64,000 nucleotides of DNA from a virus: IMG/VR virus record IMGVR_UViG_3300029760_000001; one strand, written 5' to 3'. Below are positions 12,131-52,725 of the stretch, in pieces. Within the stretch, counting starts at the first letter, position 1. Every line of letters begins with the position of its first letter. The notes under the pieces were generated by a model. The model was not told the origin of the DNA. It was given only the letters and a program-made list of their open reading frames with translations, and made no database searches. A program made the translations under genes and the position numbers.

Positions 12131-12210
12131 GCGGATATGGCGGAATTGGCAGACGTAGAAGGCTCAAACCCTTCGGAGAAATCGTGTGGGTTCGAATCCC
12201 ACTATCCGTA
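12131..12210 (+). tRNA. tRNA-Leu (anticodon CAA)
   Basis: Acceptor GCGGATA/TATCCGT (G1:U72 wobble); anticodon stem GAAGG/CCTTC with loop CTCAAAC; T-arm identical to the 10681 tRNA; 11-nt variable region; discriminator A. Confidence 0.6.
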
Positions 12211-12646: not shown

Positions 12647-12720
12647 GGAAACTTAGCTCAGTTGGTTAGAGCAACCGGCTCATAACCGGTCGGTCCTGGG
12701 TTCGAGTCCCAGAGTTTCCA
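12647..12720 (+). tRNA. tRNA-Met (or Ile2-lysidine) anticodon CAT, elongator type
   Basis: Perfect cloverleaf: acceptor GGAAACT/AGTTTCC; D-arm GCTC-AGTTGGTTA-GAGC; anticodon stem ACCGG/CCGGT with loop CTCATAA; T-arm CTGGG-TTCGAGT-CCCAG. Confidence 0.8.
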
Positions 12721-12925
12721 TTTCTCCTGACGAAGGAGTGACTTTTATAGGCTGTAGAGTTCCAATAAGAAACAAGCCGTTTCTAGTTAGGGCGTGAAAC
12801 TGGTGTTTTTTTGAGATGTTTTATAAGTAAAAATATCCAGCTTTAGAGAAAATGTAGTGAATTGAGCTGATCAAAGAACACATAATCCTGTTAGGACTGC
12901 AGCACGACAGGTCATGCATGAAAAG

Positions 12926-12998
12926 TGATAAGTAGCTCAGTTGGGAGAAAGAGCGCACTACAAAAGTGAGGTCGGTGGTTCGAGTCCACTCTTATCAC
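12926..12998 (+). tRNA. tRNA-like gene with aberrant anticodon arm (possibly degenerate or non-canonical)
   Basis: Good acceptor (TGATAAG/CTTATCA) and T-arm (GGTGG-TTCGAGT-CCACT). The D-loop is 12 nt, and the anticodon region CACT-ACAAA-AGTG forms only a 4-bp stem with a 5-nt loop. Confidence 0.35.
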
Positions 12999-13075
12999 AT
13001 TTGTAATGATGACGCGCGGATCGTTACAAAAGAAAATAGTAACTACTGAAATGTATATTTAAGGAGGCAGTAAAC

Positions 13076-25017: not shown

Positions 25018-27315
25018 ATGAGTAAAAAAGAAGTGAAATTTAATTGTAAAATCGTAAAGCGTATGTATAATTCAGAGAATTACAAGATTTATGCTACATA
25101 CGTAGATAAAAAAGAGTTTCCTAATATTAAGCATAATAAATATGATAACGTCACTATTTATGGAGACGTACATAATTTGGTAGTTTCACAGTCGTATGAA
25201 GTTACGGCTGTGGAGCAGCTTGATAATAAGTATGGATATGGATACGATATTGTAAATATACGGATGGATAAACCCAAGAATGAGGAAGAAGTCTATATGT
25301 TCTTAAGAGAAATTTTAACTGAGAACCAGGCAGGAGTACTTTGGCAGCATTATCCGGATATTATTGATATTATTTTAAGAGGAGAAGCAGATACCGTTGA
25401 TTTGGATAAATTAAAAGGTATTGGCGAAAAAACGTTTGAAACTATTAAGACAAAAATAATTGAGAATTATTGTATCTATGACTTAGTAGTTGAATTTGGT
25501 GGAATTCTTACAATGTCTATGCTGAAAAAACTATACGATGAATTTAAATCAATTCCCAAAATGAAACAGGAATTGAGAAAACGACCATATAAATCATTAA
25601 CCAAAATATCTGGGGTAGGTTTTATTAAGGCAGATAGTATTCTTTTAGAATTGCAGCGATTGGGTAAAATTGATTTTCCTTTTGAATTAAAATCATCCGC
25701 TCAAAGATGTGCTGCTTGTATGGAGTATTATTTGGAGGAGAATCAAAAAGAAGGAAATACTAAAATGGATCTGCGCGATCTCAGAAAACAGGTTGTAAGA
25801 CTTGTTCCTGCTTGTTCATCACATTATGTTGAATGTTTAAAGGATCCAGATATTTATTATAACAAAGATACTTTTGAAGTAGCATTAAAAATCACACATG
25901 ATACTGAATGTCAAATAGCAGCTTCATTATTCGTAGCAAACTTAAAACCTAAAATATGGGATTTTGATTGGAAAAGTTACCAGACAGCAGGAGAATATCA
26001 TTTAACTGACGAACAAACCAGTGCATTGGAATGTATATGTAACAATAATATTATGATATTAAATGGCTTTGCAGGATCTGGTAAAAGTGCTACTTCTGCA
26101 ATGATCATCAAAATGCTAGAGGATAATAGTATCTCATATACCTTGATGGCTCCAACAGGACGCGCTGCAAAAGTATTGAGTGATTATACTGGCAGGCCAG
26201 CGGCTACAATTCATCGTGGATTAGGATATATGCCAAAGAATAGATGGGGATATAATAGCGAATACCAATTACCATTTGATGTTGTTCTTGTAGATGAATT
26301 TTCAATGACAGATATATTCCTGTTCTTACATTTATGTGAAGCAATTGATTTTAGTAGAACAAAACTTATTGTTGTAGGAGATTCCGCACAGCTTCCATCC
26401 GTTGGGCCAGGAAATTTGCTTTATGATATGATTAATTCATTTGTTATACCTACAATAACTTTAAATCAGATTTTTAGATACGCTGAAGGCGGATTGATGA
26501 AAGTCGCTACGGATGTTAGAAATATGAAACCATATTTATACGATTTGAATAATGGTATAGCAAAATTTGGGAACGATTATACATTCATTAATGCAAATAA
26601 TGAACAATCAATAAAATGTGCAATTAGTTTGTACCAAAAACTTCTTACCAAATATTCTTCCGAAGACATTCTTGTTTTATCTGCTTTTAATAAAGGAGAT
26701 TGTGGCACTATTGTAATTAATAATTCGATTCAAAAAATTGCAAATCCAAATTATGGGTCAGAAAAATGTATCAAATCTGGAGACACGACATATTATGTTA
26801 GAGATATAGTTATTCAGATAAAAAACAATTATGAAGCAGAAGTAGATATGGGTGATATGAAGATAGAAAATGCTAATCCTAGAGAATATTCTGTTGATAC
26901 AACATTTATTCCTAATGGTATGTTAGGAAAGATCGTTGATATTTATGACGAAACTATCCCATATACAAACGAACATAAAACTGGTGCGATTATTGATTTT
27001 GACGGTGTTAGAGTAAAATATGAAAAATCAGAAATGTCAATGTTATTATTGGGATATGCAATTTCTATTCATAAAAGCCAGGGAGGAAGTGCTAAAGTGA
27101 CAATTACACTTACGCCATCTTGTCATGCATACATGATGAATTCTAATTTATTATATGTGGCATTGACACGTACAAAAGAAAAAAGTTTTCATATTGGCGA
27201 TAAAGATACTGTAAACAGAGCAACTAAAAAGAAGGAGAACTTTAAGAGGAACACTTTCTTATTAGATGTATTAAAGAAAATAAAAATTAAATTAAACAAA
27301 AAGGAGAACAAATGA
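25018..27315 (+). CDS. RecD-like SF1 DNA helicase
   Basis: Walker A GFAGSGKSATSAM, Walker B VLVDEFSMTD, and C-terminal ISIHKSQGGSAKVTI...LYVALTRTKEK (UvrD_C_2). Confidence 0.8.
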   Translation: MSKKEVKFNCKIVKRMYNSENYKIYATYVDKKEFPNIKHNKYDNVTIYGDVHNLVVSQSYEVTAVEQLDNKYGYGYDIVNIRMDKPKNEEEVYMFLREILTENQAGVLWQHYPDIIDIILRGEADTVDLDKLKGIGEKTFETIKTKIIENYCIYDLVVEFGGILTMSMLKKLYDEFKSIPKMKQELRKRPYKSLTKISGVGFIKADSILLELQRLGKIDFPFELKSSAQRCAACMEYYLEENQKEGNTKMDLRDLRKQVVRLVPACSSHYVECLKDPDIYYNKDTFEVALKITHDTECQIAASLFVANLKPKIWDFDWKSYQTAGEYHLTDEQTSALECICNNNIMILNGFAGSGKSATSAMIIKMLEDNSISYTLMAPTGRAAKVLSDYTGRPAATIHRGLGYMPKNRWGYNSEYQLPFDVVLVDEFSMTDIFLFLHLCEAIDFSRTKLIVVGDSAQLPSVGPGNLLYDMINSFVIPTITLNQIFRYAEGGLMKVATDVRNMKPYLYDLNNGIAKFGNDYTFINANNEQSIKCAISLYQKLLTKYSSEDILVLSAFNKGDCGTIVINNSIQKIANPNYGSEKCIKSGDTTYYVRDIVIQIKNNYEAEVDMGDMKIENANPREYSVDTTFIPNGMLGKIVDIYDETIPYTNEHKTGAIIDFDGVRVKYEKSEMSMLLLGYAISIHKSQGGSAKVTITLTPSCHAYMMNSNLLYVALTRTKEKSFHIGDKDTVNRATKKKENFKRNTFLLDVLKKIKIKLNKKENK

Positions 27316-28079
27316 AGTCAGAATTATTTCAGAATGAATTAAAAACGATTCAATCAGACGATATCCGTGATTTTGCAAAAGTTGTCTTGGATGATGCTCC
27401 TGACTATTTTTTCAAGGTTGCGGCGAGTTCTACAGGTAAATATCACCCGGCATATGCGCTGGGTGATGGAGGTCTTATGCGGCACACGAAAGCAGTATTA
27501 AGAATCTATAATTATATTGTAGGGTTAGAGCAGTATCCATTTGGAGAAAGAGTAATAGATTTAGGTCGAGTCGCATGTTTAGCACATGATATTCAAAAAT
27601 CCGGGACAGAAGAATATTATAATGAAAAGTTAAAAGATGGGAAAAAAGTATTCACTGTATTTAACCATCCTTTATTGGCAGCAGAATATATTCGTAATTA
27701 TAAAGGAATGTATTTAGAAGATGATGATCTGGAAGATATTGCCAGACTTATCGAAACGCATATGGGGCAGTGGAATACTGATAAGCGTGAAAATATTATC
27801 TTGCCTAAACCCAAAAGCGAAGTAGAGAAGATTGTGCATTTAGCAGATTATCTGGCTTCTAGAAAGGATATTGATATTTCTTTTAAAGAGGATGTTAATG
27901 CATATGACTTGCCGGATATTGAAACATATAAATGTCCGTATAAGAAACATAAGGATGAATTACTGGTAGACGTTGCAAAGACAGACCCTGAATATCTGGA
28001 ATGGTTATCTGAGAATGTTAATATGAGAGAACCTATGAAAACATTTGTAAATGAACTTTTAAAAAGCAAAACAAATTAA
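27312..28079 (+). CDS. HD-domain phosphohydrolase
   Basis: H...HD pattern (KYHPAYALGD...CLAHDIQKSG...HLADYLAS). Confidence 0.6.
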   Translation: MKSELFQNELKTIQSDDIRDFAKVVLDDAPDYFFKVAASSTGKYHPAYALGDGGLMRHTKAVLRIYNYIVGLEQYPFGERVIDLGRVACLAHDIQKSGTEEYYNEKLKDGKKVFTVFNHPLLAAEYIRNYKGMYLEDDDLEDIARLIETHMGQWNTDKRENIILPKPKSEVEKIVHLADYLASRKDIDISFKEDVNAYDLPDIETYKCPYKKHKDELLVDVAKTDPEYLEWLSENVNMREPMKTFVNELLKSKTN

Positions 28080-36340: not shown

Positions 36341-36700
36341 ATGCCGGAACGTAACAGAGGATATTTGAGAGAACAAAGGTTAAAAAGTATTAAAAAGAGA
36401 CGCAGATTAATTAAGGGCCAAAAATATTCCGGAAGATATCTTGGAGAATGGATTGATGAACCTGAATTTAAATCTGGTGTATTAGCAAAAGGTCATAATG
36501 GTTTGCTTGGTCGAGGTGGCACTGCAGTAAAAACTAATACTCGTAAAGGACATGCTTCATATCGACATAAAGGTGCTTATGGTCCGGCAGACAACTATTC
36601 AAAACATGATAAGCAGCAAGTTGAAGATGGATCACAGCAAATTAAAGAATGGGAGAACAGAGATGGAAAAAGAGAAAAAGAAAGTCTTGATTGTGATTGA
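36341..36700 (+). CDS. hypothetical basic protein
   Basis: 119 aa, R/K-rich. Confidence 0.35.
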   Translation: MPERNRGYLREQRLKSIKKRRRLIKGQKYSGRYLGEWIDEPEFKSGVLAKGHNGLLGRGGTAVKTNTRKGHASYRHKGAYGPADNYSKHDKQQVEDGSQQIKEWENRDGKREKESLDCD

Positions 36701-37217
36701 TGTACAGAATGATTTTGTAACCGGTTCACTTGGTACGCCGGAAGCTCAAGCTATTATTCCGAATGTAAAAAAGAAATTTGATGAATATAAGAATAATAAG
36801 AACTATGTAATTCTTACAAAGGATACTCATCATTCAGATTACGCAGATACTTCAGAGGGCAGAAAACTTCCTGAACATTGTATGTATGGTACTAAAGGTT
36901 GGGAAATTGTTGATGAACTTGATTATAAAAATCTCGATAGTTTTATGGTATGTTGTAAATCTACTTTTGGATTTGATGACTGGGATTGGGAAGAAACATT
37001 TGATATCGTATATGATTCTTCTTTATTAGATATTGAAATTATTGGCATATGCACAGATATCTGTGTTATTACGAACGCTCTTTTGATTAAAACTTATTAT
37101 CCAGAGGCAAAAATCACAGTTGATGCATCATGCTGCGCAGGATCAACACCGGAAAAGCATAAAGCGGCTCTTGATGTAATGGAAAGCTGCCAGATTAATG
37201 TAATCAATAGAAATTAA
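36663..37217 (+). CDS. pncA: Isochorismatase-family cysteine hydrolase, nicotinamidase (PncA)-like
   Basis: VLIVIDVQNDF (Asp), the K in ILTKDTHH, and the GICTDICV catalytic Cys form the nicotinamidase triad pattern. Confidence 0.65.
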   Translation: MEKEKKKVLIVIDVQNDFVTGSLGTPEAQAIIPNVKKKFDEYKNNKNYVILTKDTHHSDYADTSEGRKLPEHCMYGTKGWEIVDELDYKNLDSFMVCCKSTFGFDDWDWEETFDIVYDSSLLDIEIIGICTDICVITNALLIKTYYPEAKITVDASCCAGSTPEKHKAALDVMESCQINVINRN

Positions 37218-37225
37218 ATTAAACA

Positions 37226-37858
37226 ATGGAGGGAATTAAAATGATGAATAATTTTATGAATGGAATGTTTGGAAAAATTGGTAGTGGAATGTGCAAGTTA
37301 TCCATGAGCGGTAATATTGCAGTAAAAACTTCCAATGGATATAAGAGTTACAATGTTAAATCCGGAAAGCTCACAAACTGCGGTAATTTTGTATTTCCTG
37401 GAGTAGATGAGAACTTCTTCTTCGTCATTCCGACAAATAAGGTGGCTAAGGGAGACATCATCCTTGTAAATGGCAAACCTAAGTGCGTCATCGAAGCAGA
37501 TAAAACAAAGATCACTGTAATTAATTATGAGGACTCTACAGTTGAAACAATCCTGCCGGAACGTCATGTATTTATGGGCAATACTTATTTCTATGGAAAA
37601 ATTGTATCTATGTTCGGAAGTAATCTTGGAAAAGATAAGAATAGTGCAAATAAAATCTTTAAATATATGATGATGTCCCAGATGATGAATGGAGCGGCCG
37701 GTACCGGAACTGGAACAGACAGTAATCCAATGAGTGCTATGATGCCATTTATGATGATGAATGGTGGTATTGGTGATGTATTTGACGGTATGTTTGATTT
37801 TAGCATGGATGATACAGACACAGAAGATAGTGAAGATGATTTAGAGGAGGATGAATAA
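37226..37858 (+). CDS. hypothetical protein with Met-rich, acidic C-terminus
   Basis: 210 aa; C-terminus reads MMMSQMMNGAAGTGTGT...MMPFMMMNGG...DDTDTEDSEDDLEEDE. Confidence 0.4.
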   Translation: MEGIKMMNNFMNGMFGKIGSGMCKLSMSGNIAVKTSNGYKSYNVKSGKLTNCGNFVFPGVDENFFFVIPTNKVAKGDIILVNGKPKCVIEADKTKITVINYEDSTVETILPERHVFMGNTYFYGKIVSMFGSNLGKDKNSANKIFKYMMMSQMMNGAAGTGTGTDSNPMSAMMPFMMMNGGIGDVFDGMFDFSMDDTDTEDSEDDLEEDE

Positions 37859-37860
37859 TT

Positions 37861-38757
37861 ATGGGAAGCGGAAGTTGGACAACGGCAAGTTTTGTAAATT
37901 ATGCAACAACAAGAGGATATGACACTGATTCACGAGGAGTAGTCACAACAAACTATTCTAATCAGGAAATGTTTAAATCAAAAGAACTTGATTCATCACT
38001 CAATCCTAAAAATGTTGTAAGAGAATGTTGTGATAGTAAAGAACATCCAAATACAGTTCCAGTTATTTTAGCTTTAGATGTTACCGGATCTATGGGGCAG
38101 GCAGCTGTTGAAATATCTAAAAAACTTAATAATATTATGACGAAATTATATGAACAAGTTGAAGATATTGAATTTATGGTAATGGGTATTGGCGATTTGT
38201 CATATGATAGGTTTCCAATACAGGCATCTCAGTTTGAATCCGATATTCGAATTGCAGAACAGCTTGAGAAAGTTTATTTTGAGTTTGGTGGTGGTGGTAA
38301 TTCTTATGAATCTTACACTGCTGCATGGTATTTTGGTGCCAGACATACAAAGCTTGATTGTTGGAATAGAGGTAAAAAAGGAATAATTATCACAATTGGT
38401 GATGAGAGACTTAATCCTTATCTTCCAAGGACAGCATATTATTGTGGCTTATTAAATGCTACAGGAGATTCACTTCAGGCTGATGTAGAAACAAAAGACT
38501 TGTATACAGAAACTGCTGAGAAATTTGATATCTATCATATTAATGTAAATCATCGTGGTGGGTATGACCAAGAGCAAATTAAAAAATCATTTTTAGAATA
38601 TCTTGATGATAAGCATTTTTGTACAATTAATAAACTTGATGATATTACAGATACAATTGTAGAAATTATTACTTCTGCAAATGAAAGCAACAACATCCCA
38701 GAAGTAACACCATTAGTTCAGGCAGAGACAGATGAATCAGGAGCTATTGTTTGGTAA
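37861..38757 (+). CDS. von Willebrand factor A (vWA) domain protein
   Basis: MIDAS-like ILALDVTGSMG (DxSxS) at the start of a ~200 aa alpha/beta domain. Confidence 0.5.
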   Translation: MGSGSWTTASFVNYATTRGYDTDSRGVVTTNYSNQEMFKSKELDSSLNPKNVVRECCDSKEHPNTVPVILALDVTGSMGQAAVEISKKLNNIMTKLYEQVEDIEFMVMGIGDLSYDRFPIQASQFESDIRIAEQLEKVYFEFGGGGNSYESYTAAWYFGARHTKLDCWNRGKKGIIITIGDERLNPYLPRTAYYCGLLNATGDSLQADVETKDLYTETAEKFDIYHINVNHRGGYDQEQIKKSFLEYLDDKHFCTINKLDDITDTIVEIITSANESNNIPEVTPLVQAETDESGAIVW

Positions 38758-38769
38758 GGAGAATAACTT

Positions 38770-39876
38770 ATGAAAGATATAAAAATTGTCATCGGAGCAA
38801 ACTTTGGTGACGAGGGCAAGGGTAAATTAACAGATTATTATACTAAAAATGCAGATAACTGTATCGTTGTGTGTTCAAATGGCGGCGCTCAAAGAGGACA
38901 CACAGTATTAAAATCAGACGGAACCCGGCATGTCTTTCATCATTTCGGCTCTGGAACATTAAACGGAGCAGATACTTATTTACCGGAGGATTTTATTTTA
39001 AATCCTCTGGTATTTAAGGAAGAATGGGAAGAATTGAAAAATTTAGGATGGGAACCTTATGTGTATATTCATGAAAAATGCATGATTACAAATCCTCTTG
39101 ATATGATGGCAAATCAAATTATTGAACGAAGTCGTGGTAACAATAAACACGGAAGCTGTGGAATGGGGATTTATAATACAATTCAACGCTATAAAAAACA
39201 GATTTATATGTTCACATCGTCATGGTCATATTATATGAATATATTCAAAAGCATGGGAATTACGTTATCTGAGCAGGAAGAAGAATTATTTAATCCATTC
39301 AAAAATCCTGGGCTTCAAGACCATTACAATGAAGATCTTGATTTTATGATGTCACACGTACATGTCGTAAATGATGATCAATTACTTAACGGATACGACA
39401 CCATAGTATTTGAAAATGGGCAGGGGCTTCTTTTGGATCAAAACAATATGGAATATTTTCCGCATTTAACACCATCAAATACTGGTATTAAGAATCCTGC
39501 CAGAATTATAAAGTCTGTAAATTGGACTGATGAGATTAATATAGAAGCTTGTTATGTGACACGTACATATATGACTAGACATGGAGCCGGTGCATTTCCA
39601 ACTGAATGTAATAAGGAAGAAATTAATCCAAACATGGAAGATTTAACCAATGTTCCAAATCCACATCAGGATACTTTAAGATATGGGAAGTTAAATGTGG
39701 AAGAATTACATGAAAGATGTCAAGCAGATATAAAAACCTCTGGAATCCCATGTCGGAAGACATTGGCTATGACTCATATGAATGAATATTGTGAGTCTAA
39801 TATATCTCTTTATGAAATACATAAAATATTCAAAGATAACTGGAAATTAAAATTGTTTGAACGTGAGGAGAACTAA
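38770..39876 (+). CDS. Short adenylosuccinate-synthetase family protein (PurA-like / candidate PurZ-like)
   Basis: The P-loop GANFGDEGKGKLTD, GGAQRGHT, FENGQGLLLD and TRHGAGAFPTE align to E. coli PurA GTQWGDEGKGK, GGHNAGHT, FEGAQGTLLD and TRVGAGPFPTE. It is only 368 aa (PurA is ~430) and lacks the GATTGRRRR segment. Confidence 0.6.
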   Translation: MKDIKIVIGANFGDEGKGKLTDYYTKNADNCIVVCSNGGAQRGHTVLKSDGTRHVFHHFGSGTLNGADTYLPEDFILNPLVFKEEWEELKNLGWEPYVYIHEKCMITNPLDMMANQIIERSRGNNKHGSCGMGIYNTIQRYKKQIYMFTSSWSYYMNIFKSMGITLSEQEEELFNPFKNPGLQDHYNEDLDFMMSHVHVVNDDQLLNGYDTIVFENGQGLLLDQNNMEYFPHLTPSNTGIKNPARIIKSVNWTDEINIEACYVTRTYMTRHGAGAFPTECNKEEINPNMEDLTNVPNPHQDTLRYGKLNVEELHERCQADIKTSGIPCRKTLAMTHMNEYCESNISLYEIHKIFKDNWKLKLFEREEN

Positions 39877-40674
39877 ATGATTAAATTAAACGACGTAGAA
39901 ATCAAACTTAATAAATATCCGGATGGAACATTCTTATTTAAGGATATTCCTCCTATTGGACCCAAAAACCTTATTGAATGGTTTTTTGAGTCAATGGAAG
40001 AAATGTCAGCAATTATTTATCTTACTCAATATTGTAAAGATCAGGGTACTAAAATTTATTTAGATATGCCATATATTCCTGATGCACGTATGGATAGAGT
40101 AAAAAAGAGAAAAGAAATCTTTACACTAAAATATTTTGCTCAAATTATTAACTTGTTAAATTTTGAACAGGTAGAAGTTTTAGATCCTCACTCTGATGTA
40201 TCTGCCGCATTATTTAATAAAGTACATGTAGGAACCCCGAATCGAATGATTGAAACTGCTGTTAAGAAGATTGCGAGTAATAATCTTATGATGTTTTATC
40301 CGGATGCGGGATCTATGAAAAGATATTCTTCAGCAGTACATCTTCCATATGCTTTCGGTATTAAGAATAGAGATTGGGAAACAGGAGAGATTAAAGGTTT
40401 AGATTTATCTGGTGAAATTGATCAATTACCAGGTAAAGACATTCTTATTGTAGATGACATTTGCAGCAGAGGTGGTACTTTTTATTATAGTGCTAAAAAG
40501 CTGAAAGAGGCCGGTGTAGGTAAGATTTATCTTTATATTACTCATTGTGAGAATACTATTTATGAAGGAGAACTTCTGAAAAATAATGGATTGATTGAGA
40601 AGATTTATACGACAGATACGATTCTGACAAATCTGGAAAGTCCTAAGATTGAACTGGTTGAGAGATTTAGATAA
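39877..40674 (+). CDS. Prs-like phosphoribosyl pyrophosphokinase-family enzyme (candidate ADP-ribose pyrophosphokinase Adps / PRPP synthetase)
   Basis: The type I PRTase PRPP-binding loop ILIVDDICSRGGT is present, and the architecture is Prs-like. It lies immediately upstream of the NAMPT-like gene. Confidence 0.5.
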   Translation: MIKLNDVEIKLNKYPDGTFLFKDIPPIGPKNLIEWFFESMEEMSAIIYLTQYCKDQGTKIYLDMPYIPDARMDRVKKRKEIFTLKYFAQIINLLNFEQVEVLDPHSDVSAALFNKVHVGTPNRMIETAVKKIASNNLMMFYPDAGSMKRYSSAVHLPYAFGIKNRDWETGEIKGLDLSGEIDQLPGKDILIVDDICSRGGTFYYSAKKLKEAGVGKIYLYITHCENTIYEGELLKNNGLIEKIYTTDTILTNLESPKIELVERFR

Positions 40675-40683
40675 GGAGGCATT

Positions 40684-41052
40684 ATGAAACCGATTGTTAG
40701 TCCTTGGACGATTTATTTTGCTAGTAGAGCAGATTCTTTGAAGATTCTTGCTGGATGTATTTTAATATGCTGCATAATTGCGATATGTATAGCATTCATT
40801 GAGGGTGACATAGACTATGGATCTGTATTAACTCATAAAAGTTTTATGAAGAAATGTGCGATAGTATCTGTCATCAGCGCAGTTACTTTGGTTATCACTC
40901 CAAGTACAGAAACAATATATACGATGGCAGTTGTAAAGGAAATTACACCTGACAACATTCAAGCAATTGGGAAAACCGGCAAGGATGTTATTGATTACAT
41001 TACAGATCAGATTGATAAAGTTATAAATGATAAAGAGGAGAATAAAAAATAA
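40684..41052 (+). CDS. small membrane protein
   Basis: 122 aa with two predicted TM helices. Confidence 0.4.
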   Translation: MKPIVSPWTIYFASRADSLKILAGCILICCIIAICIAFIEGDIDYGSVLTHKSFMKKCAIVSVISAVTLVITPSTETIYTMAVVKEITPDNIQAIGKTGKDVIDYITDQIDKVINDKEENKK

Positions 41053-42524
41053 TGAATACAATGGCAATTTTACTCTCAGACACATATAAACAGATACATA
41101 ATAAAATCTATCCGAAAGGACTGGATCAATTAGTATCTTACTGGACCCCACGAAGATCAATGCTTAAGAATCAGAACAAAATGGTATTCTTTGGTCTACA
41201 GGCATTTATTGAAGAGTATCTGGTCGATTATTTTAATAAAAACTTTTTTGAATTAACAGCAGCAGAAGTTGAGCATACATATAAATACAGTATGGATATA
41301 CAGTTAGGAAATAGTTATGACCTAAAGCCTATTATGAAACTTCATAAATTAGGTTATCTTCCAATTCGGATACGTGCTATTCCGGAGGGAACATTAGTAC
41401 CAATGGGCATCCCATGCATCGAAATTACAAATACACATCCAGATTTTGCCTGGGTAGTACAGTGGATCGAATGTATTCTGCAGGTTGAACTCTGGAAACC
41501 ATGTGCTCATGCAACAATTGGTCATATGTATAGAGAACTTGCAAACGACTACTATAAAATGACCTGTGATGACTTTTTAAGACCTGAAATGGCCTGCTCA
41601 GACTTTGGTATGAGAGGAATGTCTTGTATGGAAGAGGCTATTAGATGCTCGTCTGCTTGGTTATTGTCATTTGATAAAACAAGTACAATTCCTGCTATTG
41701 ATTATATAGATACATATTATGATGCTTGTTGCTGGACTGAAAAGATTGGAATTGGGGCTGTATCAACAGAGCATAGCTGCATGGCTTCAAACTTTGCAGT
41801 AGACGGTGATGAAATCACATTTGTAAAAAGACTACTTACAGAACTATATCCTAATGCATCTTTTAGTATGGTATCTGATACATATGATTACTGGAACATG
41901 ATTGATAATATTCTTCCGGCTTGTAAAAAAGAAATCATGCAGCATAATGGTAAACTTCTGGTTCGTCCAGATTCCGGAGATATGGTAGAAATTGCTGTAG
42001 AGACAATTGAAAAGCTTTGGAATACATTCGGCGGAACAGTAAATAGCAAGGGATATAAAGTGCTTGATCCGCACATTGGAATTATCTATGGAGACGGATG
42101 TACTCTCAACAATGTAGAACAGGTATGGGAAGAACTTAAAGAAAAAGGATTCGCTGCAAACAATATCGTATTCGGGGTCGGAGCATTTTGCTTCTCAGCA
42201 GTTATAGAACCCGATGGACATATAGTTGTTGTAACTAGGGATATGTTTGGTATTGCTATGAAAGCTACATATGGAATTGTTAATGGCGAGCCAATTATGA
42301 TTTATAAAGATCCAAAAACCGACACGAGTCATTTGAAAAAGTCTCATAAAGGGTGTTGTTGTATATATCACGATGACAATGGAGAGTTGCAATGCATGGA
42401 TGGATTTAATGATGTATTTCGTGACGGAGTATTAAGAACTGTATTTAAAGACGGTGAAATGTATCATAAAGAAACATTTGAAGACATTAGAGAAAGATTA
42501 AACAGAGGAAACAAAGATGAGTAA
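41052..42524 (+). CDS. nadV: Nicotinamide phosphoribosyltransferase family (NadV / candidate Namat)
   Basis: The N-terminal LLSDTYKQIHNKIYP matches the NAMPT DSYK.H motif. At 490 aa with GDGCTL...GVGAF, it is type II PRTase (NAPRTase family)-like. Confidence 0.65.
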   Translation: MNTMAILLSDTYKQIHNKIYPKGLDQLVSYWTPRRSMLKNQNKMVFFGLQAFIEEYLVDYFNKNFFELTAAEVEHTYKYSMDIQLGNSYDLKPIMKLHKLGYLPIRIRAIPEGTLVPMGIPCIEITNTHPDFAWVVQWIECILQVELWKPCAHATIGHMYRELANDYYKMTCDDFLRPEMACSDFGMRGMSCMEEAIRCSSAWLLSFDKTSTIPAIDYIDTYYDACCWTEKIGIGAVSTEHSCMASNFAVDGDEITFVKRLLTELYPNASFSMVSDTYDYWNMIDNILPACKKEIMQHNGKLLVRPDSGDMVEIAVETIEKLWNTFGGTVNSKGYKVLDPHIGIIYGDGCTLNNVEQVWEELKEKGFAANNIVFGVGAFCFSAVIEPDGHIVVVTRDMFGIAMKATYGIVNGEPIMIYKDPKTDTSHLKKSHKGCCCIYHDDNGELQCMDGFNDVFRDGVLRTVFKDGEMYHKETFEDIRERLNRGNKDE

Positions 42525-42990
42525 AATTACAGATTATTTATTAAAAGATGATGTGATTGTAGTAATGGATGTAGATGGAGTACTTGCTCCGTATGAGTTC
42601 TCTGAATTAAGTCATAGTATGACTGATGATGAATGGGATAGACTTGTAGCTTCCGGTGAGAATCCGTATAAAGATGTACGTCCGATTAAATTAATGCAAG
42701 AGTTCATTCAGAAGAAAGGTATTGACAAAGTATATGCTTGTTCAAAGAGTCCTTCTAGTGAGATCCCCGGCAAAAGAGCTTTTATCAAAGATAATTACGG
42801 CCTTCCGGATGATAATATCTATTTTACTTTAGAAAAGACAGAAAAACTTACTGTGCTTCAGACGCTGCAACAAAAGCTTGGGCTTAAGCCGTCTCAGATT
42901 GCAATTGTAGAGGATACAGTAAAAACTTTGGATTATATTCGTGCACATAGTGATTTTGTAACTGTACACGTTTCATCATTTATGGAGTAA
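42517..42990 (+). CDS. HAD-superfamily 5'(3')-deoxyribonucleotidase-like protein
   Basis: HAD motif I VVMDVDGVL (DxDGV) in a 157 aa protein, NT5C-like in size. Confidence 0.45.
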   Translation: MSKITDYLLKDDVIVVMDVDGVLAPYEFSELSHSMTDDEWDRLVASGENPYKDVRPIKLMQEFIQKKGIDKVYACSKSPSSEIPGKRAFIKDNYGLPDDNIYFTLEKTEKLTVLQTLQQKLGLKPSQIAIVEDTVKTLDYIRAHSDFVTVHVSSFME

Positions 42991-43005
42991 AGAGGAGTAA
43001 AGAGA

Positions 43006-43545
43006 ATGAATTTACAAAGTATTAGTAGATATATAAGTCTTATATTAAGACATAAGCCTGAAGTTATTGGTATTACTATAGATGAACATGGTTGGGCGAA
43101 TGTAGAAGAACTGATTCAGGGTATCGCTAAAAACAATCCCAGATTCAACAAAGAATTTTTAGAGGAAATTGTACGGACTGACAATAAGCAGCGATATTCT
43201 TTCAATGACGACAAGACATTGATCAGAGCGAATCAGGGACATTCAATTCCGGTAGATGTAGAACTGGAAGAGAAAGAGCCACCTAAAATTCTTTATCATG
43301 GAACTGGCGAGAAATATATAGCGTCTATTGATCAGAATGGACTGATTCCTAAAAGTCGTTTATATGTTCATTTGTCAAAAGATGTTGAAACCGCCAAAGC
43401 TGTCGGCAAGAGACATGGTAAAGAAGTTGTTTATTCTATCAATAGTGAACAGATGTACAAAGATGGATACAAATTTTACTTATCTAAAAATGGAGTTTGG
43501 CTGACTAAAAGGGTTCCAGTGAAATATTTAATGAAGGAGGTATAA
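43006..43545 (+). CDS. kptA: RNA 2'-phosphotransferase Tpt1/KptA family (NAD+-dependent)
   Basis: [32 protein letters not shown]...LYHGT...LYVHLS matches the KptA/Tpt1 (PTS_2-RNA) family. Confidence 0.65.
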
Positions 43546-43547
43546 AA

Positions 43548-43955
43548 ATGAGTAGTACATATTTTACGGATTCAGTTTCAGATCTTTGTCAGGGGATTGT
43601 TGATAAAGCAGATACTTATGAAAAACGAATTAAATACTTAGAAGAAGAAAACAAGAAGCTCAAAGATGAGCATTATAAAGATTCTGAAATGCAGAGAATG
43701 GAAGCAGAATTGAAAAAAGCGAAAGAGGATCTGTACAGAGGATTTCCAATTTCAGAAAAAGAACAAGAGAAAATCAGAGAGTGGGAATTAAAACATGATG
43801 CTGAGAAACATGGTTTGAAAACTATGGAACAGAGGGCAATGGGACATGGTTGCATAGGCGGCTCTCTTACATGGTGCTTTACACCAACATCAATCGGAAC
43901 TATTGGAGAAGTGATTTGCTCCTGTGGCGAGAAGTTTACATTTCAGGATTTATAG
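43548..43955 (+). CDS. hypothetical protein (coiled coil + Cys cluster)
   Basis: 135 aa ORF. Confidence 0.4.
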   Translation: MSSTYFTDSVSDLCQGIVDKADTYEKRIKYLEEENKKLKDEHYKDSEMQRMEAELKKAKEDLYRGFPISEKEQEKIREWELKHDAEKHGLKTMEQRAMGHGCIGGSLTWCFTPTSIGTIGEVICSCGEKFTFQDL

Positions 43956-43965
43956 GAAAAGATTT

Positions 43966-44466
43966 ATGATTAAAATTATTGAAGGTAATATTGTTAATGC
44001 AAAGACAGATTTTATAATTCATCAGGTTAACTGCCAGGGTGTTATGGGATCTGGAGTTGCTAAAGCATTAAGAGATTATGATGAAGGCATTTATAAACAC
44101 TATAGAAAGTTTTGTGAATTTTGTAAGTTCGAGCCGGAAGAACTACTCGGAACATGTGATGCATATTTATTGAAAGATAGAGGTCAAATTGTATTGTCTT
44201 TATTCGCACAAAATAACTATGGATATGATGGTAAACAGTATACAGATCTTGAAGCTTTTAGAGATGGTTTAAGATATATTTCGCAACATTTTGGAGTATG
44301 GCGTGAAAAAAATGGACTAGAAGGAAAAGATCTTTGTAGAACCTCAGTAGCACTTCCGTATAAGATTGGTTGTGTAAGAGGGGGAGCAGACTGGGAAGTG
44401 GTTTATAAAATCATTGAAGAGGAACTTAAAGATTATGATGTGGAATTATGGAGGCTGGATGAATGA
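43966..44466 (+). CDS. Macro domain protein (ADP-ribose binding / ADP-ribosyl hydrolase)
   Basis: IIHQVNCQGVMGSGVAKAL matches the macrodomain VNAAN...GGGV core. ATG 43966 with an AGGAAAAG RBS is preferred over the 43924 start. Confidence 0.6.
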   Translation: MIKIIEGNIVNAKTDFIIHQVNCQGVMGSGVAKALRDYDEGIYKHYRKFCEFCKFEPEELLGTCDAYLLKDRGQIVLSLFAQNNYGYDGKQYTDLEAFRDGLRYISQHFGVWREKNGLEGKDLCRTSVALPYKIGCVRGGADWEVVYKIIEEELKDYDVELWRLDE

Positions 44467-44747
44467 ACAGAAAAGATAATACATTAGAAGGAATAGGTGC
44501 GTTTACAGTAATCATCCTTGCGATTTTCACTCTTGTTATTAGTCCGGCATTATCATTTATGTTTGCTTACATAGGTGGATGTATACTGAAATTTTTTGTA
44601 GGGGACGCATTGGTTAATGGACTAAATATCATATTTAATACAACTAGATTTACGAAACCAATGATCCCTGTTATTTGTGCAACAATTGCAACAATTGGTA
44701 AATATTTTAAAACAACAGTCGATATGTCAAGACATAAAGGACAGTAG
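44463..44747 (+). CDS. small membrane protein
   Basis: 94 aa with two TM helices. Confidence 0.35.
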   Translation: MNRKDNTLEGIGAFTVIILAIFTLVISPALSFMFAYIGGCILKFFVGDALVNGLNIIFNTTRFTKPMIPVICATIATIGKYFKTTVDMSRHKGQ

Positions 44748-44756
44748 GAGTTTTAT

Positions 44757-45332
44757 ATGAGAGAGTACCATATTTATATACAACATACAAAATGTGTAGA
44801 AGCTCATTTTAATTACATTATATACAGATGGCTCCCATGGGAATATGTAGGATGTGTAGAAGGGACTAAAGAACTGTATACATACTTTAAGTCAAAGTTC
44901 CCATACAGCATGAGAAGTATCAATTTATATCATTCATTCAACTATTTTGATGATGAATATTTAAAAATAGATAATAATTGGGATTTTATGTGTACTTGTC
45001 CGCGTGAATATCACAGATATTTGATTATTGATGATTATGGTAATGTACGAGACTTTCATCAGCTTACTAAGAAATATAAAAAGAAATACTATCGTACATA
45101 TCATAAGCATCATGGTTGGAATATTCATTGGGCTTCAACAGTGCCGGATCAGCGTAAAAGTATTACACCAGAAGAGATTGTAGAGGTAAGAAATGAATAT
45201 GGTATTACGCTCAAACCTATAAAACCAAAAAGAAAAACAGATTCATGGGATCATGTGAGAGGATTAAAAGTGTCGGGTTGGAAAATGCAGAGTAAAAGGA
45301 GAAAACAGTGGAAACCAATGGAGGGCATTTAA
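44757..45332 (+). CDS. hypothetical protein (basic, His/Tyr-rich)
   Basis: 191 aa ORF. Confidence 0.4.
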   Translation: MREYHIYIQHTKCVEAHFNYIIYRWLPWEYVGCVEGTKELYTYFKSKFPYSMRSINLYHSFNYFDDEYLKIDNNWDFMCTCPREYHRYLIIDDYGNVRDFHQLTKKYKKKYYRTYHKHHGWNIHWASTVPDQRKSITPEEIVEVRNEYGITLKPIKPKRKTDSWDHVRGLKVSGWKMQSKRRKQWKPMEGI

Positions 45333-45333
45333 A

Positions 45334-45762
45334 ATGATTAATAGTTTTACTGGAGATTATTACTTTTTAAGTAACTTTTATATGGCACCGGTAAATTACA
45401 ACGGATGGGACTATACAAATAATGAAGCAGCTTTTCAAGCGCAGAAAACAAAGAATCGTAGACTAAGATTCCAGTTATTTTCTGAAGCTAACCCATCAGA
45501 AGCAAAAGCAGCAGGCAGAAAGATTGATTTAAGATCTGATTGGGAAGAAGTGAAAGATAAAGTAATGTATGAAATCGTACTGGCTAAATTCACTCAGAAT
45601 CCAGACCTTAAGGAAAAGTTACTTGCTACAGGTGATGAACATTTGGAAGAAGGAAATACATGGGGAGATACAACTTGGGGAACTGTTAATGGTATTGGAG
45701 AAAACAGGCTTGGTATAATTCTTATGAAAGTAAGAAAGGAACTGCAGGAGGAATCAAAATGA
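45334..45762 (+). CDS. NADAR / YbiA-like (DUF1768) domain protein
   Basis: GDYYFLSNFY...EAAFQAQKT...W...G matches the YbiA/NADAR family. That family includes N-glycosidases and the guanine de-ADP-ribosylating NADAR antitoxins. Confidence 0.6.
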   Translation: MINSFTGDYYFLSNFYMAPVNYNGWDYTNNEAAFQAQKTKNRRLRFQLFSEANPSEAKAAGRKIDLRSDWEEVKDKVMYEIVLAKFTQNPDLKEKLLATGDEHLEEGNTWGDTTWGTVNGIGENRLGIILMKVRKELQEESK

Positions 45763-45977
45763 AAAAAGCAGTATCTATATTAATTCTTCTGTTTATCAGT
45801 GTATTTATGTTGACTGGATGCGCTAAATGTATTGATAAGAAAGAAGAAAGTGTAAAAGTCAAAATTGTTAATGAATACTATAAGCCGGAAGAAACTCATT
45901 TAATAGGTATAATTAATCATGTTCCGCAATTTCGGACAGATTATGCCGAGTATGAAATTACGGTAAACTATAACTGA
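45759..45977 (+). CDS. small lipoprotein
   Basis: Signal peptide plus lipobox LTGCAKC. Confidence 0.4.
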   Translation: MKKAVSILILLFISVFMLTGCAKCIDKKEESVKVKIVNEYYKPEETHLIGIINHVPQFRTDYAEYEITVNYN

Positions 45978-46119
45978 GTGGAATATTCACTTAGTGATGA
46001 AAGTACATATCGTAAATATCATGGAAGAATAGGACAAACAGTGTCTGCAGTATTAGTTACTAAAACATATGATGATGGTGAGGTTAGGCAGTATATTAAT
46101 CGTTTGGGAGGATTATAAG

Positions 46120-46881
46120 ATGAAATATTACAATGGATACTTTAAAGAACTTAAGAATGAAATTGTACAGTGGATCAGAGACTGGTTTGATCAAAATGGC
46201 CCAGGCTGCAATGCAATAGTAGGAATCTCTGGTGGAAAAGATTCTTCTGTTGTAGCAGCATTATGTGTTGAAGCATTAGGAAAAGACAGAGTAATTGGTG
46301 TGCTTATGCCACAGGGTCAGCAGAAAGATATTTATGCTGCGTACAAGCTTTGTGAATTTCTTGATATTAAATCATACGAAATCAACATTGGCGACACAGT
46401 TCGAAGTGTATTGTCAAGACTCGAAAGCTCAGGAATCGAGATCAGCGAACAGACAAAAATAAATCTTCCGGCACGTATTAGAATGTCTACATTATATGCT
46501 GTCTCTCAGTCTTGTAATGGAAGAGTAGCAAATACATGTAATCTTTCAGAATCATATGTCGGTTATGAAACCAGGTATGGTGATTCGGCAGGTGATTTTA
46601 GTCCGTTAGGAAAATTAACTGTATATGAAGTTAAAAAACTTGGATATGAATTATTGCTTCCTACAGAACTTATTGAAAAGATCCCGATAGATGGCTTGTG
46701 TGAAAAGACAGATGAGGACAATTTAGGATTCCCATATGAAGTTCTGGACAGATATCTTCGTACAGGAGAGATTGACGATCTGGATGTAAAAGCTAAGATT
46801 GATTTAATGCATAAACGATGCCTTTTTAAATCAGAGAAGATCCCGGTATTTAATCCTGGATTAAAAGTAGAGGTAGCATAA
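46120..46881 (+). CDS. nadE: NH3-dependent NAD+ synthetase
   Basis: PP-loop GISGGKDSS, 253 aa from the MKYYNGYF start, with a GGAGGA RBS 7 nt upstream. Confidence 0.75.
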   Translation: MKYYNGYFKELKNEIVQWIRDWFDQNGPGCNAIVGISGGKDSSVVAALCVEALGKDRVIGVLMPQGQQKDIYAAYKLCEFLDIKSYEINIGDTVRSVLSRLESSGIEISEQTKINLPARIRMSTLYAVSQSCNGRVANTCNLSESYVGYETRYGDSAGDFSPLGKLTVYEVKKLGYELLLPTELIEKIPIDGLCEKTDEDNLGFPYEVLDRYLRTGEIDDLDVKAKIDLMHKRCLFKSEKIPVFNPGLKVEVA

Positions 46882-50959: not shown

Positions 50960-50996
50960 GGGAGCTATATCGAAATGATATAACTCCCTTATTTTT
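50960..50996. terminator. Bidirectional rho-independent terminator between xis (+) and int (-)
   Basis: GGGAGCTATATC-gaaatg-GATATAACTCCC stem (one mismatch) followed by TTATTTTT. Confidence 0.55.
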
Positions 50997-52188
50997 AATC
51001 AAGTAAATTTATGACTTCTGATTTATGTTTATTCATGATATGCATATATATGTTATAAGTTGTGGAAACATCTTCATGTCCGAGTATCTCTGATATCACC
51101 TTAATATCTACAGGCTGGTTCTGTTCCCATCCTTTCTGCAGCAGCATGGACCCAAATGAATGTCTGAGATCATGTAAGCCGAAGCCATTAGATTCAATAT
51201 CAGCTCTCTTGAGGATCGCTTTAAGCGTCCTAGTAAGAGTTGACTGTGATGGTGGAATATTATTTTCAGTTACGAATATGTGATCATCTCCGGATGCTTT
51301 TAAGCCAGGAGAGACAGTTTTAAGCCAGAGCAGCTGTTCCTTTGCACGATTTGCCAGAGGAATGACTCTGATTGACTTAGGACGCTTTGGTGTATCTATG
51401 AGCCACTGATATTTGCCATCTACTTTGATACGCTCCATTGTCTTATCTATGTTAATGGTATTATTCTTAAAATCTATATCTTTCCATGTGAGAGCATAAG
51501 CTTCTCCTATACGCATGCCAGTATAAAGAACTAACAGACAGAACCTGGCATTACGTCCATAGATGTAATCACCTGTCCTTACGCCGGGCAAAGCAGAATC
51601 TGCTTTCATAAGAGCCGTCTTATAAAACTTCTCAGCTTCTTCTAAAGATAAGAAAGAATGTTCTTTCTTCTGTACTGCATATTTTGACTTATGCGGCATC
51701 TTAATCCCTTTTGCAGGATTCTCTGTGATAATATTACAGGATACAAGATAGTCGAAAACAATATTGAAAAGAGTGCGTGTCTTTTTAACAGTGCTCTCAG
51801 AATATTTCTTCGACATATTTGTATAGTATGTTTGAATGACAATCTTGTCTATAGCAGCCATCTGGACATCAGCAATCGGATTAGTTTTAATATAGCAGCG
51901 ATTTGTAGACTGAAGAGTAGCATAGTTGTTCGTCTTGAAGGTTGGCTCCAATGTCTGCAGGATATTATCTATGCATTCCCCAAGAGTCATCTTACGATAA
52001 TCTTTTTGGTTAACCCTCATACTCTTAGCTTCAAATTCTTGTATCTTGCGTCTTACATCAGCTTTTGTCCTTCCTACAAATTCTTTCCGGCTTGTCATAC
52101 CATCATATTTCTTACGGTACCTATAGTATGTAATGTCATTCTTTGTTACAGTATCCCATGATCCTGAACCTTTTTCCCTTCTTGCCAT
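50995..52188 (-). CDS. int: Tyrosine-type site-specific integrase (phage integrase family, N-terminal arm-binding domain)
   Basis: C-terminal catalytic HDLRHSFGSMLL...Y; N-terminal MARREKGSGSW arm-binding motif. ATG 52188 has a GGAGGG RBS, so the track start at 52257 is over-extended. Confidence 0.85.
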   Translation of the reverse strand: MARREKGSGSWDTVTKNDITYYRYRKKYDGMTSRKEFVGRTKADVRRKIQEFEAKSMRVNQKDYRKMTLGECIDNILQTLEPTFKTNNYATLQSTNRCYIKTNPIADVQMAAIDKIVIQTYYTNMSKKYSESTVKKTRTLFNIVFDYLVSCNIITENPAKGIKMPHKSKYAVQKKEHSFLSLEEAEKFYKTALMKADSALPGVRTGDYIYGRNARFCLLVLYTGMRIGEAYALTWKDIDFKNNTINIDKTMERIKVDGKYQWLIDTPKRPKSIRVIPLANRAKEQLLWLKTVSPGLKASGDDHIFVTENNIPPSQSTLTRTLKAILKRADIESNGFGLHDLRHSFGSMLLQKGWEQNQPVDIKVISEILGHEDVSTTYNIYMHIMNKHKSEVINLLD

Positions 52189-52299
52189 ATACATCCCTCC
52201 GTTGTGTAAATTTACACTAATTTTACTTACAAAATAAAAAACTTTACTTTTTTCCAAAATTATGATAATATGAATTATGTGTTAAGTAAATTATAGCAT

Positions 52300-52530: not shown

Positions 52531-52602
52531 GCGCCTGTAGCTCAGTGGATAGAGCAGTGGTTTCCGGTACCATGTGCGGGGGTTCGATTCCCTTCAGGCG
52601 TG
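52531..52602 (+). tRNA. tRNA-Arg (anticodon CCG), likely the integration target
   Basis: Acceptor GCGCCTG/CAGGCGT (G1:U72); D-arm GCTC-AGTGGATA-GAGC; anticodon stem GTGGT/ACCAT with loop TTCCGGT; T-arm GGGGG-TTCGATT-CCCTT; no encoded CCA. Confidence 0.7.
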
Positions 52603-52725
52603 CTGCCTGGGACGTATGTACAGTTCCGGTGCGTTGTATCACAGGAGTTATCAGAATCGGGAACTGTCAGAAATCGTATGCGGCAGTGAACGGAGCAAAC
52701 GGTAACTCATAAGGAGGACAAGAAC

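Follow-up and report, generated by a model that had tools for sequence, protein, structure and literature searches.

The adenylosuccinate synthetase PurA, which draws on inosine monophosphate (IMP), aspartate and GTP, phosphorylates the purine C6 oxygen by means of an Asp, a His and a Gln. PurZ and PurZ0 are short, phage-encoded enzymes of the same type which occur in phages with Z-DNA genomes and make a precursor of 2-aminoadenine; the PurZ gene adjoins datZ and mazZ, and a Ser-to-Asp mutation has been reported to abolish PurZ selectivity. NARP1 and NARP1-AP, by which phages reconstitute NAD+ from ADP-ribose through ADP-ribose pyrophosphate, consist of an ADP-ribose pyrophosphokinase (Adps) and a nicotinamide ADP-ribose transferase (Namat), with or without a macro-domain ADP-ribose-1''-phosphate phosphatase (Adpp), a known NARP1 accessory. 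NARP1 is recognised by a Prs homologue of the Adps clade that has a Namat homologue close by. The TerY-P triad comprises a vWA protein, a protein kinase and a PP2C phosphatase. Metabolite clusters have been proposed for Ter-associated operons. The present analysis compares these systems with the locus of a PurA-like enzyme of 368 amino acids (aa), encoded with an ATG start at 38770..39876 (+) in a stretch of 64,000 nucleotides from the virus record IMGVR_UViG_3300029760_000001 of IMG/VR. This whole stretch is referred to as the window.

The enzyme falls in a vWA-linked branch of the adenylosuccinate-synthetase superfamily, and its residues indicate that it is probably an active member of this very large, undescribed branch. 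The reading preferred here, which is judged slightly more probable than not, is that PurA-type ligation driven by a nucleoside triphosphate (NTP) takes place on substrates other than IMP and aspartate and serves a conflict over NAD+ and ADP-ribose. What is new, as far as alignments and gene order indicate, would be that an enzyme of the PurA type has acquired different specificity determinants and depends on a vWA protein as its obligate partner.

Catalytic core and substrate pockets of the PurA-like family

The four motifs from which the sequence-only reading had assigned the protein to the PurA family are all present in the 368-aa frame, namely GDEGKGK (residues 13-19), GGAQRGHT (38-45), FENGQG (214-219) and TRHGAGAFPTE (269-279). 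Its comparison in size with phage PurZ and archaeal short PurA was also accurate (PurZ of phiVC8, 343 aa; PurZ of S-2L, 359 aa; Pyrococcus horikoshii PurA, 339 aa). Pfam family PF00709 matches the protein with E = 1.9e-37 over aa 6-284 only. The AlphaFold2 (AF2) model, with a predicted local distance difference test score (pLDDT) of 79 and a predicted template-modelling score (pTM) of 0.83, aligns over ~360 columns to solved PurA structures in Foldseek, so that the C-terminal third is also PurA-like. In this model the protein has a full-length PurA fold. Canonical PurA chains take ranks 1-28 of the Foldseek search, and PurZ of S-2L, PurZ0 and PurZ of phiVC8 are found at ranks 29-37.

The gene is not a chance open reading frame (ORF), because it has thousands of homologues: 3,772 at E <= 1e-5 in a database clustered at 90% identity and, among representatives at 50% identity, 8,056 clusters, of which 2,344 at E <= 1e-30. 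Cultured phages that carry it include ~200 cluster C mycobacteriophages (e.g., Bxz1 gp250), Rhizobium phages of the Kleczkowskaviridae and the Vibrio phages pv27 and phiTY18. Matches by tblastn also occur in phage records of Listeria, Salmonella, Staphylococcus and Acinetobacter, which are candidate members of the clade only.

The window protein was aligned to PurA of E. coli, to two PurZ sequences and to a varied set of family members, and residues were counted over 233 diverse members of the family. D14, K17, H44 and Q218 are kept in 233/233 and T234 in 229. The position of E. coli N38 is occupied by Q41 in 229 members, that of T129 by C130 in 217 (motif HGSCG) and that of V273 by H271 in 232 (motif TRHG). 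In PurA, N38, T129, R143' and V273 are ligands of the IMP 5'-phosphate and ribose. The aspartate loop GATTGRRRRTGWLD (E. coli GATTGRRRR, T300-T301-G-R303-R-R305) has become TNxPNxxQ(G/D)xxRYGxxD in the family, which in the numbering of the window protein reads T293-N294-x-P-N297-x-x-Q300-(G/D)-x-x-R304-Y-G; R303 and R305 are lost, and N294 and Q300 are each found in 232/233 members. E. coli R143 aligns to a variable position, an assignment which depends on the alignment and has the near-invariant R140 nearby. The window protein contains the complete family signature, that is, Q41, HGSC130G, TRH271G and TNxPNxxQ300 together with the catalytic D, H and Q. In the guanine-specificity motif TKLD, which holds K331 and D333 of PurA, the threonine (T335) is kept, the lysine is replaced by His (166 members) or Cys (60) and the final position is Asn (118) or Asp (109). 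The other guanine-specificity element, S414-x-G near the C-terminus, is kept as SxG by most members, and the window lineage ends in LFEREEN without SxG.

Because the core is invariant and the ligands of the IMP phosphate and of aspartate are replaced, while PurZ keeps N38, T129 and R143, the pockets for the 5'-phosphate and aspartate appear to have been rebuilt and the machinery of phosphoryl transfer to a purine-type carbonyl to have been kept. By residue pattern the family is a distinct clade of the PurA superfamily, in which the catalytic core is intact and the pockets for the substrates have been remodelled. The scores point in the same direction. The curated PurA models NF002223 and TIGR00184 give 106 bits against a cut-off of 402 and 92 against 396, the curated PurZ model NF038379 gives 47.3 bits against 300, and BLASTP yields E = 6e-20 to E. 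coli PurA and 1e-4 to PurZ.

Identity with canonical PurA was rejected, since all equivalog scores lie far below cut-off and the IMP-phosphate and aspartate ligands are replaced. The alignment against PurA and PurZ which the sequence-only reading had proposed thus places the protein in neither group: the Asp-to-Ser change of PurZ is missing, and the IMP-contact residues N38, T129 and V273 are exchanged, so that it is not a canonical PurA. Its suggestion of AMP supply is doubtful on the same ground, as the family has conserved neither the ligands of the IMP phosphate nor the arginines that bind aspartate. The idea of a new succino-nucleotide reaction fares better in part: a new reaction is plausible for so atypical a PurA, but the "succino-nucleotide" half is put in doubt by the loss of the same arginines.

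Synthesis of Z-base DNA had been offered as a further function. Identity with PurZ was rejected on the strength of D14 in all 233 members, the NF038379 score, the absence of datZ, mazZ and dpoZ from the window and the DnaE-type polymerase. DatZ, MazZ and DpoZ of phiVC8 and S-2L produced nothing below E = 1 in tblastn against the 64-kb window. The HD protein at 27312-28079, whose comparison with DatZ had been recommended, has an HD domain and an ExoX-like C-terminal domain and shows no similarity to DatZ. The polymerase of the window is of the DnaE type and not of the PolA or PrimPol type.

The databases nevertheless name the family after PurZ. The window protein is grouped with PurZ in phrog_1211 of PHROGs, and RefSeq and Pharokka-style annotation call the family "2-aminooxy adenylosuccinate synthetase". 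The homologues of cluster C mycobacteriophages, for example gp250 of Bxz1 (NC_004687), carry the family signature (D14, Q41, GSCG and TRHG) and not that of PurZ. To judge by these residues, a PurZ-type name on the family, cluster C mycobacteriophages included, is probably an over-annotation. Hundreds of phages bear this label; it is probably wrong, and therefore Z-genome predictions built on it would be false.

The vWA partner and the third gene

The gene directly upstream encodes a vWA-fold protein of ~298 aa (37861..38757, +; phrog_2971), whose stop lies 12 nt before the start codon of the PurA-like gene. It has a MIDAS-like D73-x-T-G-S77 motif and an N-terminus of the form MGxGxW. Its AF2 model (pLDDT 71, pTM 0.74) matches integrin I-domains, BatB and vWA adhesins of pili in Foldseek; no match was found in Pfam, and phmmer against PDB was also empty.

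Viral synteny was counted over 80 IMG/VR loci and genome synteny over 80 loci of genome collections, 69 of which have enough upstream DNA for the vWA gene to be scored. The genome loci span Bacillota, Pseudomonadota, Cyanobacteria/Melainabacteria, Chlorobiota and Planctomycetota. A rescan of viral contigs with the family alignment gave the same close relatives only, and family diversity was taken from genome contigs. The vWA gene is directly upstream of the PurA-like gene, on the same strand, in 80/80 IMG/VR loci and, by hidden Markov model (HMM), directly upstream on the same strand in 68/69 genome loci. It is likewise upstream in phages of Rhizobium (TM30), Vibrio (pv27) and Mycobacterium (Bxz1); the window vWA protein has 37% identity to the upstream homologue of TM30 (E = 1e-44) and 40% to that of pv27 (E = 2e-55). 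The lone genome locus without a vWA gene, L135 from an uncultured Clostridium sp., has its PurA-like gene split into two ORFs, which is consistent with decay of the PurA-like gene after loss of the partner.

Judged by gene order, the vWA gene is the obligate genetic partner of the PurA-like gene. The sequence-only reading had instead regarded a Prs-like and a NAMPT-like gene as the nearest neighbours. The Prs-like gene does lie immediately downstream, but the NAMPT-like gene comes only after a 122-aa ORF, and the conserved vWA and Met-rich genes upstream had been overlooked; the conserved functional partner is the vWA gene and not the Prs/NAMPT pair.

Invariant features of the vWA family are the MIDAS-like D-x-T-G-S and the patches RE, QFExD and GGGNxxESY. 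The N-terminus M-G-x-[GAS]-x-[WFY] is essentially invariant in 72-73 sequences from many phyla and phages. The motif does not coincide with the first Met of the ORF in 14 of 72 sequences, three of which have no N-terminal MGxGxW at all. In Bxz1 gp248, the MGxGxW-type motif begins at an internal Met, and this suggests that the start codon of gp248 is mis-annotated.

The third gene of the module in the window encodes a Met-rich protein (37226..37858, +) of 210 aa with 22 Met, whose N-terminal part is beta-rich and which further has a Met/Gly-rich segment and an acidic tail. The order Met-rich, vWA, PurA-like is found in all 80 IMG/VR loci, and by HMM the Met-rich gene occurs in 25/80 genome loci. 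Its similarity to gp016 of TM30 and CDS0142 of pv27 is weak and collinear, with a common motif MMxSQ(M/L); no Pfam, PHROG or PDB (phmmer) match was found. In TM30, an ORF with a HIRAN domain is situated between the Met-rich and vWA genes.

An alternative third gene, present in 35/80 genome loci, codes for a protein of ~348 aa in which an N-terminal J domain with the HPD motif is fused to a kinase-like domain. The latter is a pseudokinase, since the aspartates of HRD and DFG are missing. Examples are L146:5914-6960, L093:5960-6979 and L083:3541-4671; the last of these is Bxz1 gp247, which is annotated "kinase" and belongs to the J-domain pseudokinase family. Comparison of the Met-rich and J-domain families by hhalign gave no homology. 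By sequence and position, the two are alternative and unrelated third genes.

The module does not appear to have been described before. PADLOC-DB gave no match to the PurA-like, vWA or Met-rich protein, and literature searches that combined PurA-like with phage, adenylosuccinate with vWA, NrtR or anti-phage/anti-defence, or prophage with von Willebrand returned no description of it. Neither adenylosuccinate nor PurA occurs as a term in the papers on NARP1, Namat and aRES (main text), and PurA-like, vWA or Met-rich genes do not figure in the main text of the NARP papers that were searched. The NARP3 paper describes a PnuC/NadR pair.

The NAD+/ADP-ribose island and its distribution

In the window, the three-gene module lies within a co-directional island of ~10 kb (36552-46881) which runs from a PncA-like gene to NadE, with gaps of 0-12 nt around the module. 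The upstream edge of the island is an isochorismatase-fold, nicotinamidase-like (PncA-like) gene at 36552..37217 (+), with PF00857 at E = 4e-23 and a weak match to the nicotinamidase model NF008623. On the other side, the ORF described as Prs-like (39877..40674, +) begins on the base after the PurA-like stop codon. Its product belongs to phrog_619 (E = 7e-68) and is Adps-like: it has 42% identity to the biochemically characterised Adps of SPbetaL1 over the full length (E = 1e-54), scores under the Prs cut-offs and is without the N-terminal half of Prs. A small hydrophobic, membrane-like ORF of 122 aa (40684..41052, +), variable in relatives (40-98% identity), separates it from the NAMPT-like gene (41052..42524, +; PF04095 and PF18127), whose product is 41% identical to SPbetaL1 Namat over the full length (E = 3e-134). 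By homology, the downstream pair are the NARP1 orthologues Adps and Namat, with one small ORF between them.

The adenine "selectivity clamp" helix of Namat, a motif taken from PMC12774641, is partly kept in the Namat-like protein. At about aa 376-398 the sequence reads GAFCFSAVIEPDGHIVVVTRD, as compared with GSFTYQYNTRD in SPbetaL1; it can be resolved into GAFCFSA, a 10-residue insertion and TRD, in which the Phe of position 3 is kept and position 7 is not obvious. The preference of the Namat-like protein for ADPR-PP (ADP-ribose pyrophosphate) rather than phosphoribosyl pyrophosphate (PRPP) may differ from that of SPbetaL1 Namat.

The island continues on the same strand with a HAD hydrolase (42517-42990), a Tpt1/KptA RNA 2'-phosphotransferase (43006-43545), a 135-aa ORF, a DarG/Adpp-like macro-domain protein (43924-44466) and a NadE-type NAD synthase (46069..46881; PF02540, E = 1.2e-52). 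In its gene content, the island looks like an extended counter-defence locus of the NARP1-AP type.

Several rearrangements are found around these genes in relatives. Protein P0029 is a fusion of a GIY-YIG homing-endonuclease domain with the last 220 aa of the PurA-like protein. L031:7324-8483, which lies between the genes for the PurA-like protein and Adps, contains two minus-strand ORFs (211 and 172 aa), a candidate IS630-like transposase on the basis of translations alone, and inserts of ~270 bp occur at the same junction in other relatives. As the sequences of these relatives indicate, this spot is struck by mobile elements. In the natural deletion variants P0194-P0197, an in-frame fusion joins the N-terminal ~210 aa of the vWA protein to the C-terminal part of Tpt1, and the PurA-like, Adps, Namat and HAD genes are taken out as a single block.

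The arrangement with Prs and NAMPT after the module is confined, among the IMG/VR loci, to a clade of 74-98% identity, and neither gene is downstream of the module in TM30 or pv27. In Clostridium chromiireducens (L144), with 40% identity in the PurA-like protein, the genes run NrtR, Adps, PncA-like, Namat, J-pseudokinase, vWA and PurA-like, and L133 resembles it. The two loci have 39-40% PurA-like identity and a gene order unlike that of the window. Adjacency to NARP1, as seen in these gene orders, is lineage-specific but recurs in distant Clostridium loci. PncA-like homologues adjoin the module in L119, L129, L133, L136 and L144. In 38/80 genome loci, and with both types of third gene, the module is adjoined by an NrtR-like protein composed of Nudix and NrtR_WHD domains, for which the best NCBIfam match is "ADPR-responsive transcriptional repressor", below cut-off. 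Such Nudix and winged-helix proteins are encoded, for example, at L117:9285-10196, L139:2928-3689, L146:5141-5797(-) and L095:1279-2127. The Nudix box (GX5EX7REUXEEXGU) of L095 looks intact. The NrtR-like neighbours may be active ADP-ribose (ADPR) pyrophosphatases as well as regulators. In pv27, a gene with a NADAR domain lies two genes upstream of the module (L002:5215-5865), and in TM30 HAD, Nudix and PRTase_3 genes (ComF-like; PF15610, E = 9e-46) are upstream (L001:1918-4245, 6655-6972).

Across these loci the module is statistically associated with genes for ADP-ribose sensing and NAD+ rebuilding. The link to NAD genes which the sequence-only reading had drawn is borne out in this form, with Adps and Namat orthologues as neighbours in the window and NARP1, PncA-like or NrtR-like genes flanking the family in distant lineages.

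The window is the end of a large prophage together with host flank, because G+C content steps from ~33% to ~43% near 50-52 kb, a tyrosine integrase (50995-52257, -) adjoins a tRNA-Arg(CCG) (52531-52603) at this point, and host-type genes of 43% G+C (polysaccharide deacetylase, RluA-like, LigA and MetA) lie beyond them. The element is a temperate phage, large and SPbeta-like, whose host is a Lachnospiraceae/Ruminococcus bacterium of the gut, and the window is chromosomal. The products of the phage part include a DnaE-type Pol III alpha subunit, a RecD2-like helicase, the HD protein, a ThyX-like protein, ribonucleotide reductase and four tRNAs. The tRNA cluster (10680-12999) comprises Gln-TTG, Leu-CAA, Met-CAT and one ARAGORN Cys call with the anticodon ACA. 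Among genomes, the nearest copies are those of Ruminococcus sp. AM36-2AA (87% identity) and Mediterraneibacter sp. NSJ-55. Relatives of ~170 kb are plentiful among the IMG/VR viral contigs, and the sole cultured-collection relative in this set is GenBank MT835469, from human faeces.

Possible functions and comparison with known systems

In the preferred explanation, the PurA-like enzyme, the vWA/MIDAS protein and a third adaptor, here Met-rich and elsewhere a J-domain pseudokinase, would act as a unit. The chemistry would be of the PurA type, in which a lactam carbonyl is O-phosphorylated at the expense of NTP and an amine then displaces the phosphate. The acceptor would be something other than a simple nucleoside 5'-monophosphate, and the amine something other than free aspartate. 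Candidate substrates are a nucleoside, a purine nucleotide with something other than a free phosphate at its 5' end, or an amine on a protein, for instance the partner's N-terminal glycine. The process served would be NAD+/ADP-ribose conflict, as counter-defence in phages and as NAD/ADPR homeostasis in cells, rather than Z-DNA or bulk AMP supply.

Several points weigh against this explanation. The vWA protein and the J-domain or Met-rich adaptor resemble parts for protein handling more than parts of a metabolic pathway. In 46 gut-phage loci of 58-62% identity, the three-gene module is present and NAD genes are absent from the surrounding 6 kb, which makes the link to NAD a frequent but not a universal one. 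Pfam analysis of 105 pooled neighbour proteins of bacterial loci returned mostly unrelated housekeeping families, which say little on function, and no sign of a prophage or defence-island signature was seen among them. The window lineage has no SxG base-binding motif and has THMN for TKLD, which leaves its use of NTP in doubt. Lastly, the alignment of the family's loops with those of E. coli PurA is uncertain, and two near-invariant residues, R140 and R304, could take the place of R143 and R305.

Alternatively, the PurA-like protein might be a nucleotide-dependent switch or scaffold, that is, an NTPase which, with the vWA protein and the J-domain or Met-rich adaptor, would recruit a target protein or remodel it, for instance via DnaK, without any ligase chemistry. 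The partners are indeed modules of protein interaction (vWA/MIDAS, a J domain with HPD, a pseudokinase without the HRD and DFG aspartates). Nevertheless, residues of PurA chemistry beyond NTP binding (the base D14, the acid H44 and Q218) are present in 233/233 members, which is hard to explain for a mere switch, and this possibility is considered unlikely.

In another possible reading, the vWA partner is itself a substrate. In a protein-directed ligase, the alpha-amine of the invariant N-terminal Gly of the vWA protein, exposed by removal of Met, would take the place of aspartate, and a purine nucleotide would become covalently attached. This would agree with the start M-G-x-[GAS]-x-[WFY] in essentially all vWA sequences, the internal Met of the Bxz1 annotation included, with the exchange of the aspartate-binding arginines for the uncharged polar invariants T293, N294, N297 and Q300, and with the obligate pairing. 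On the other hand, a protein substrate is pure inference and has no precedent in the PurA family, the invariant N-terminus may have a structural or translational cause, and the true start is assumed in the 14 of 72 sequences with the motif off the first Met, of which three are without the motif. Such a ligase is regarded as quite unlikely. A fully specified version, in which the vWA Gly undergoes enzymatic N-terminal purinylation via purine C6, switched on by a rise in ADP-ribose and used in NAD+ conflict by phages and bacteria, has a very low probability.

It is likewise very unlikely that the protein is an ordinary auxiliary PurA which boosts AMP/ATP from IMP, Asp and GTP for the needs of Adps and of NAD+ rebuilding. 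In its favour, the protein retains the PurA fold and catalytic core, Adps uses ATP, and the gene sits in an NAD island. Against this stand the change of N38, T129, V273, R303 and R305, all to other invariant residues, the PurA score of 106 bits where the equivalog model demands 402, and an obligate vWA partner, which would be unexpected for a housekeeping enzyme. The host already has its own purA.

A comparably low probability is given to the synthesis of a nucleoside-like small molecule together with neighbouring phosphoribosyltransferase (PRTase), HAD and Nudix enzymes. Such a pathway would resemble the metabolite clusters of Ter-associated operons; the HAD, PRTase_3 and Nudix genes lie just upstream in TM30, a PRTase-type enzyme and a HAD protein are near the module in the window, and the changed 5'-phosphate pocket would suit a nucleoside. 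However, the PRTase-type genes of the window are clear NARP1 orthologues, and most loci are without neighbours of this kind.

That the protein is a PurZ or PurZ0 which makes the 2-aminoadenine precursor of a Z-DNA genome is disfavoured as extremely improbable: the short length, an F12 in common with PurZ and the labels in PHROG 1211 and RefSeq count for little beside D14 and E15, kept where PurZ has S and T, the model and BLASTP scores, the missing Z genes, the HD protein unlike DatZ, the DnaE-type polymerase and the nature of the element as an integrated prophage.

The module is a concrete candidate, open to testing, for a new player in the arms race over NAD+ and ADP-ribose, and the family may also be a case of new enzymology within a textbook enzyme family. 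The module would be categorically new only if the protein-modification reading were true. The family, with its thousands of sequence clusters, forms a strictly conserved module which occurs both in large phages with widely differing hosts and in bacterial chromosomes. Bxz1, which grows on M. smegmatis, and the phages pv27 of Vibrio and TM30 of Rhizobium are available as cultivable models.

With PurA (E. coli, PDB 1ADE/1CG0; B. anthracis, 4M9D), the family shares a fold which is alike from end to end (Foldseek E values as low as 4e-16, TM ~0.65), the P-loop GDEGKG and Asp13, His41, Gln224 and Thr239. Identity is only ~20-27%. The family differs in the IMP 5'-phosphate ligands (N38 to Q, T129 to C), in the invariant His at V273, in the replaced R303/R305 aspartate loop and in TH(x)N/D where PurA has TKLD; the family lacks the ~70-residue C-terminal insert of PurA, its gene always comes with a vWA gene beside it, and scores fall far under the curated PurA cut-offs. 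PurZ and PurZ0 (PDB 7ODX, 6FM0, 7VF6) are, like the window protein, short, phage-encoded and PurA-type, with a common C-terminal deletion and one PHROG. PurZ of phiVC8 and of S-2L carries Ser-Thr, whereas the family keeps Asp-Glu (GDEGKG in the window); N38, T129 and R143 are kept by PurZ and not by the family, which is closer to PurA than to PurZ in both sequence and structure.

As regards NARP1 and NARP1-AP, most members of the PurA-like family do not adjoin NARP1 genes. In the window the downstream pair is orthologous and a macro-domain gene is near, and the PurA-like module is co-directional with the NARP1 genes here as well as in L144 and L133. The TerY-P triad differs from the module in that the kinase-fold member is here a J-domain pseudokinase or its Met-rich replacement, there is no phosphatase, and the enzyme is a PurA-like ligase. 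Both, however, are small conserved operons in which a MIDAS-type vWA protein is combined with a kinase-fold protein.

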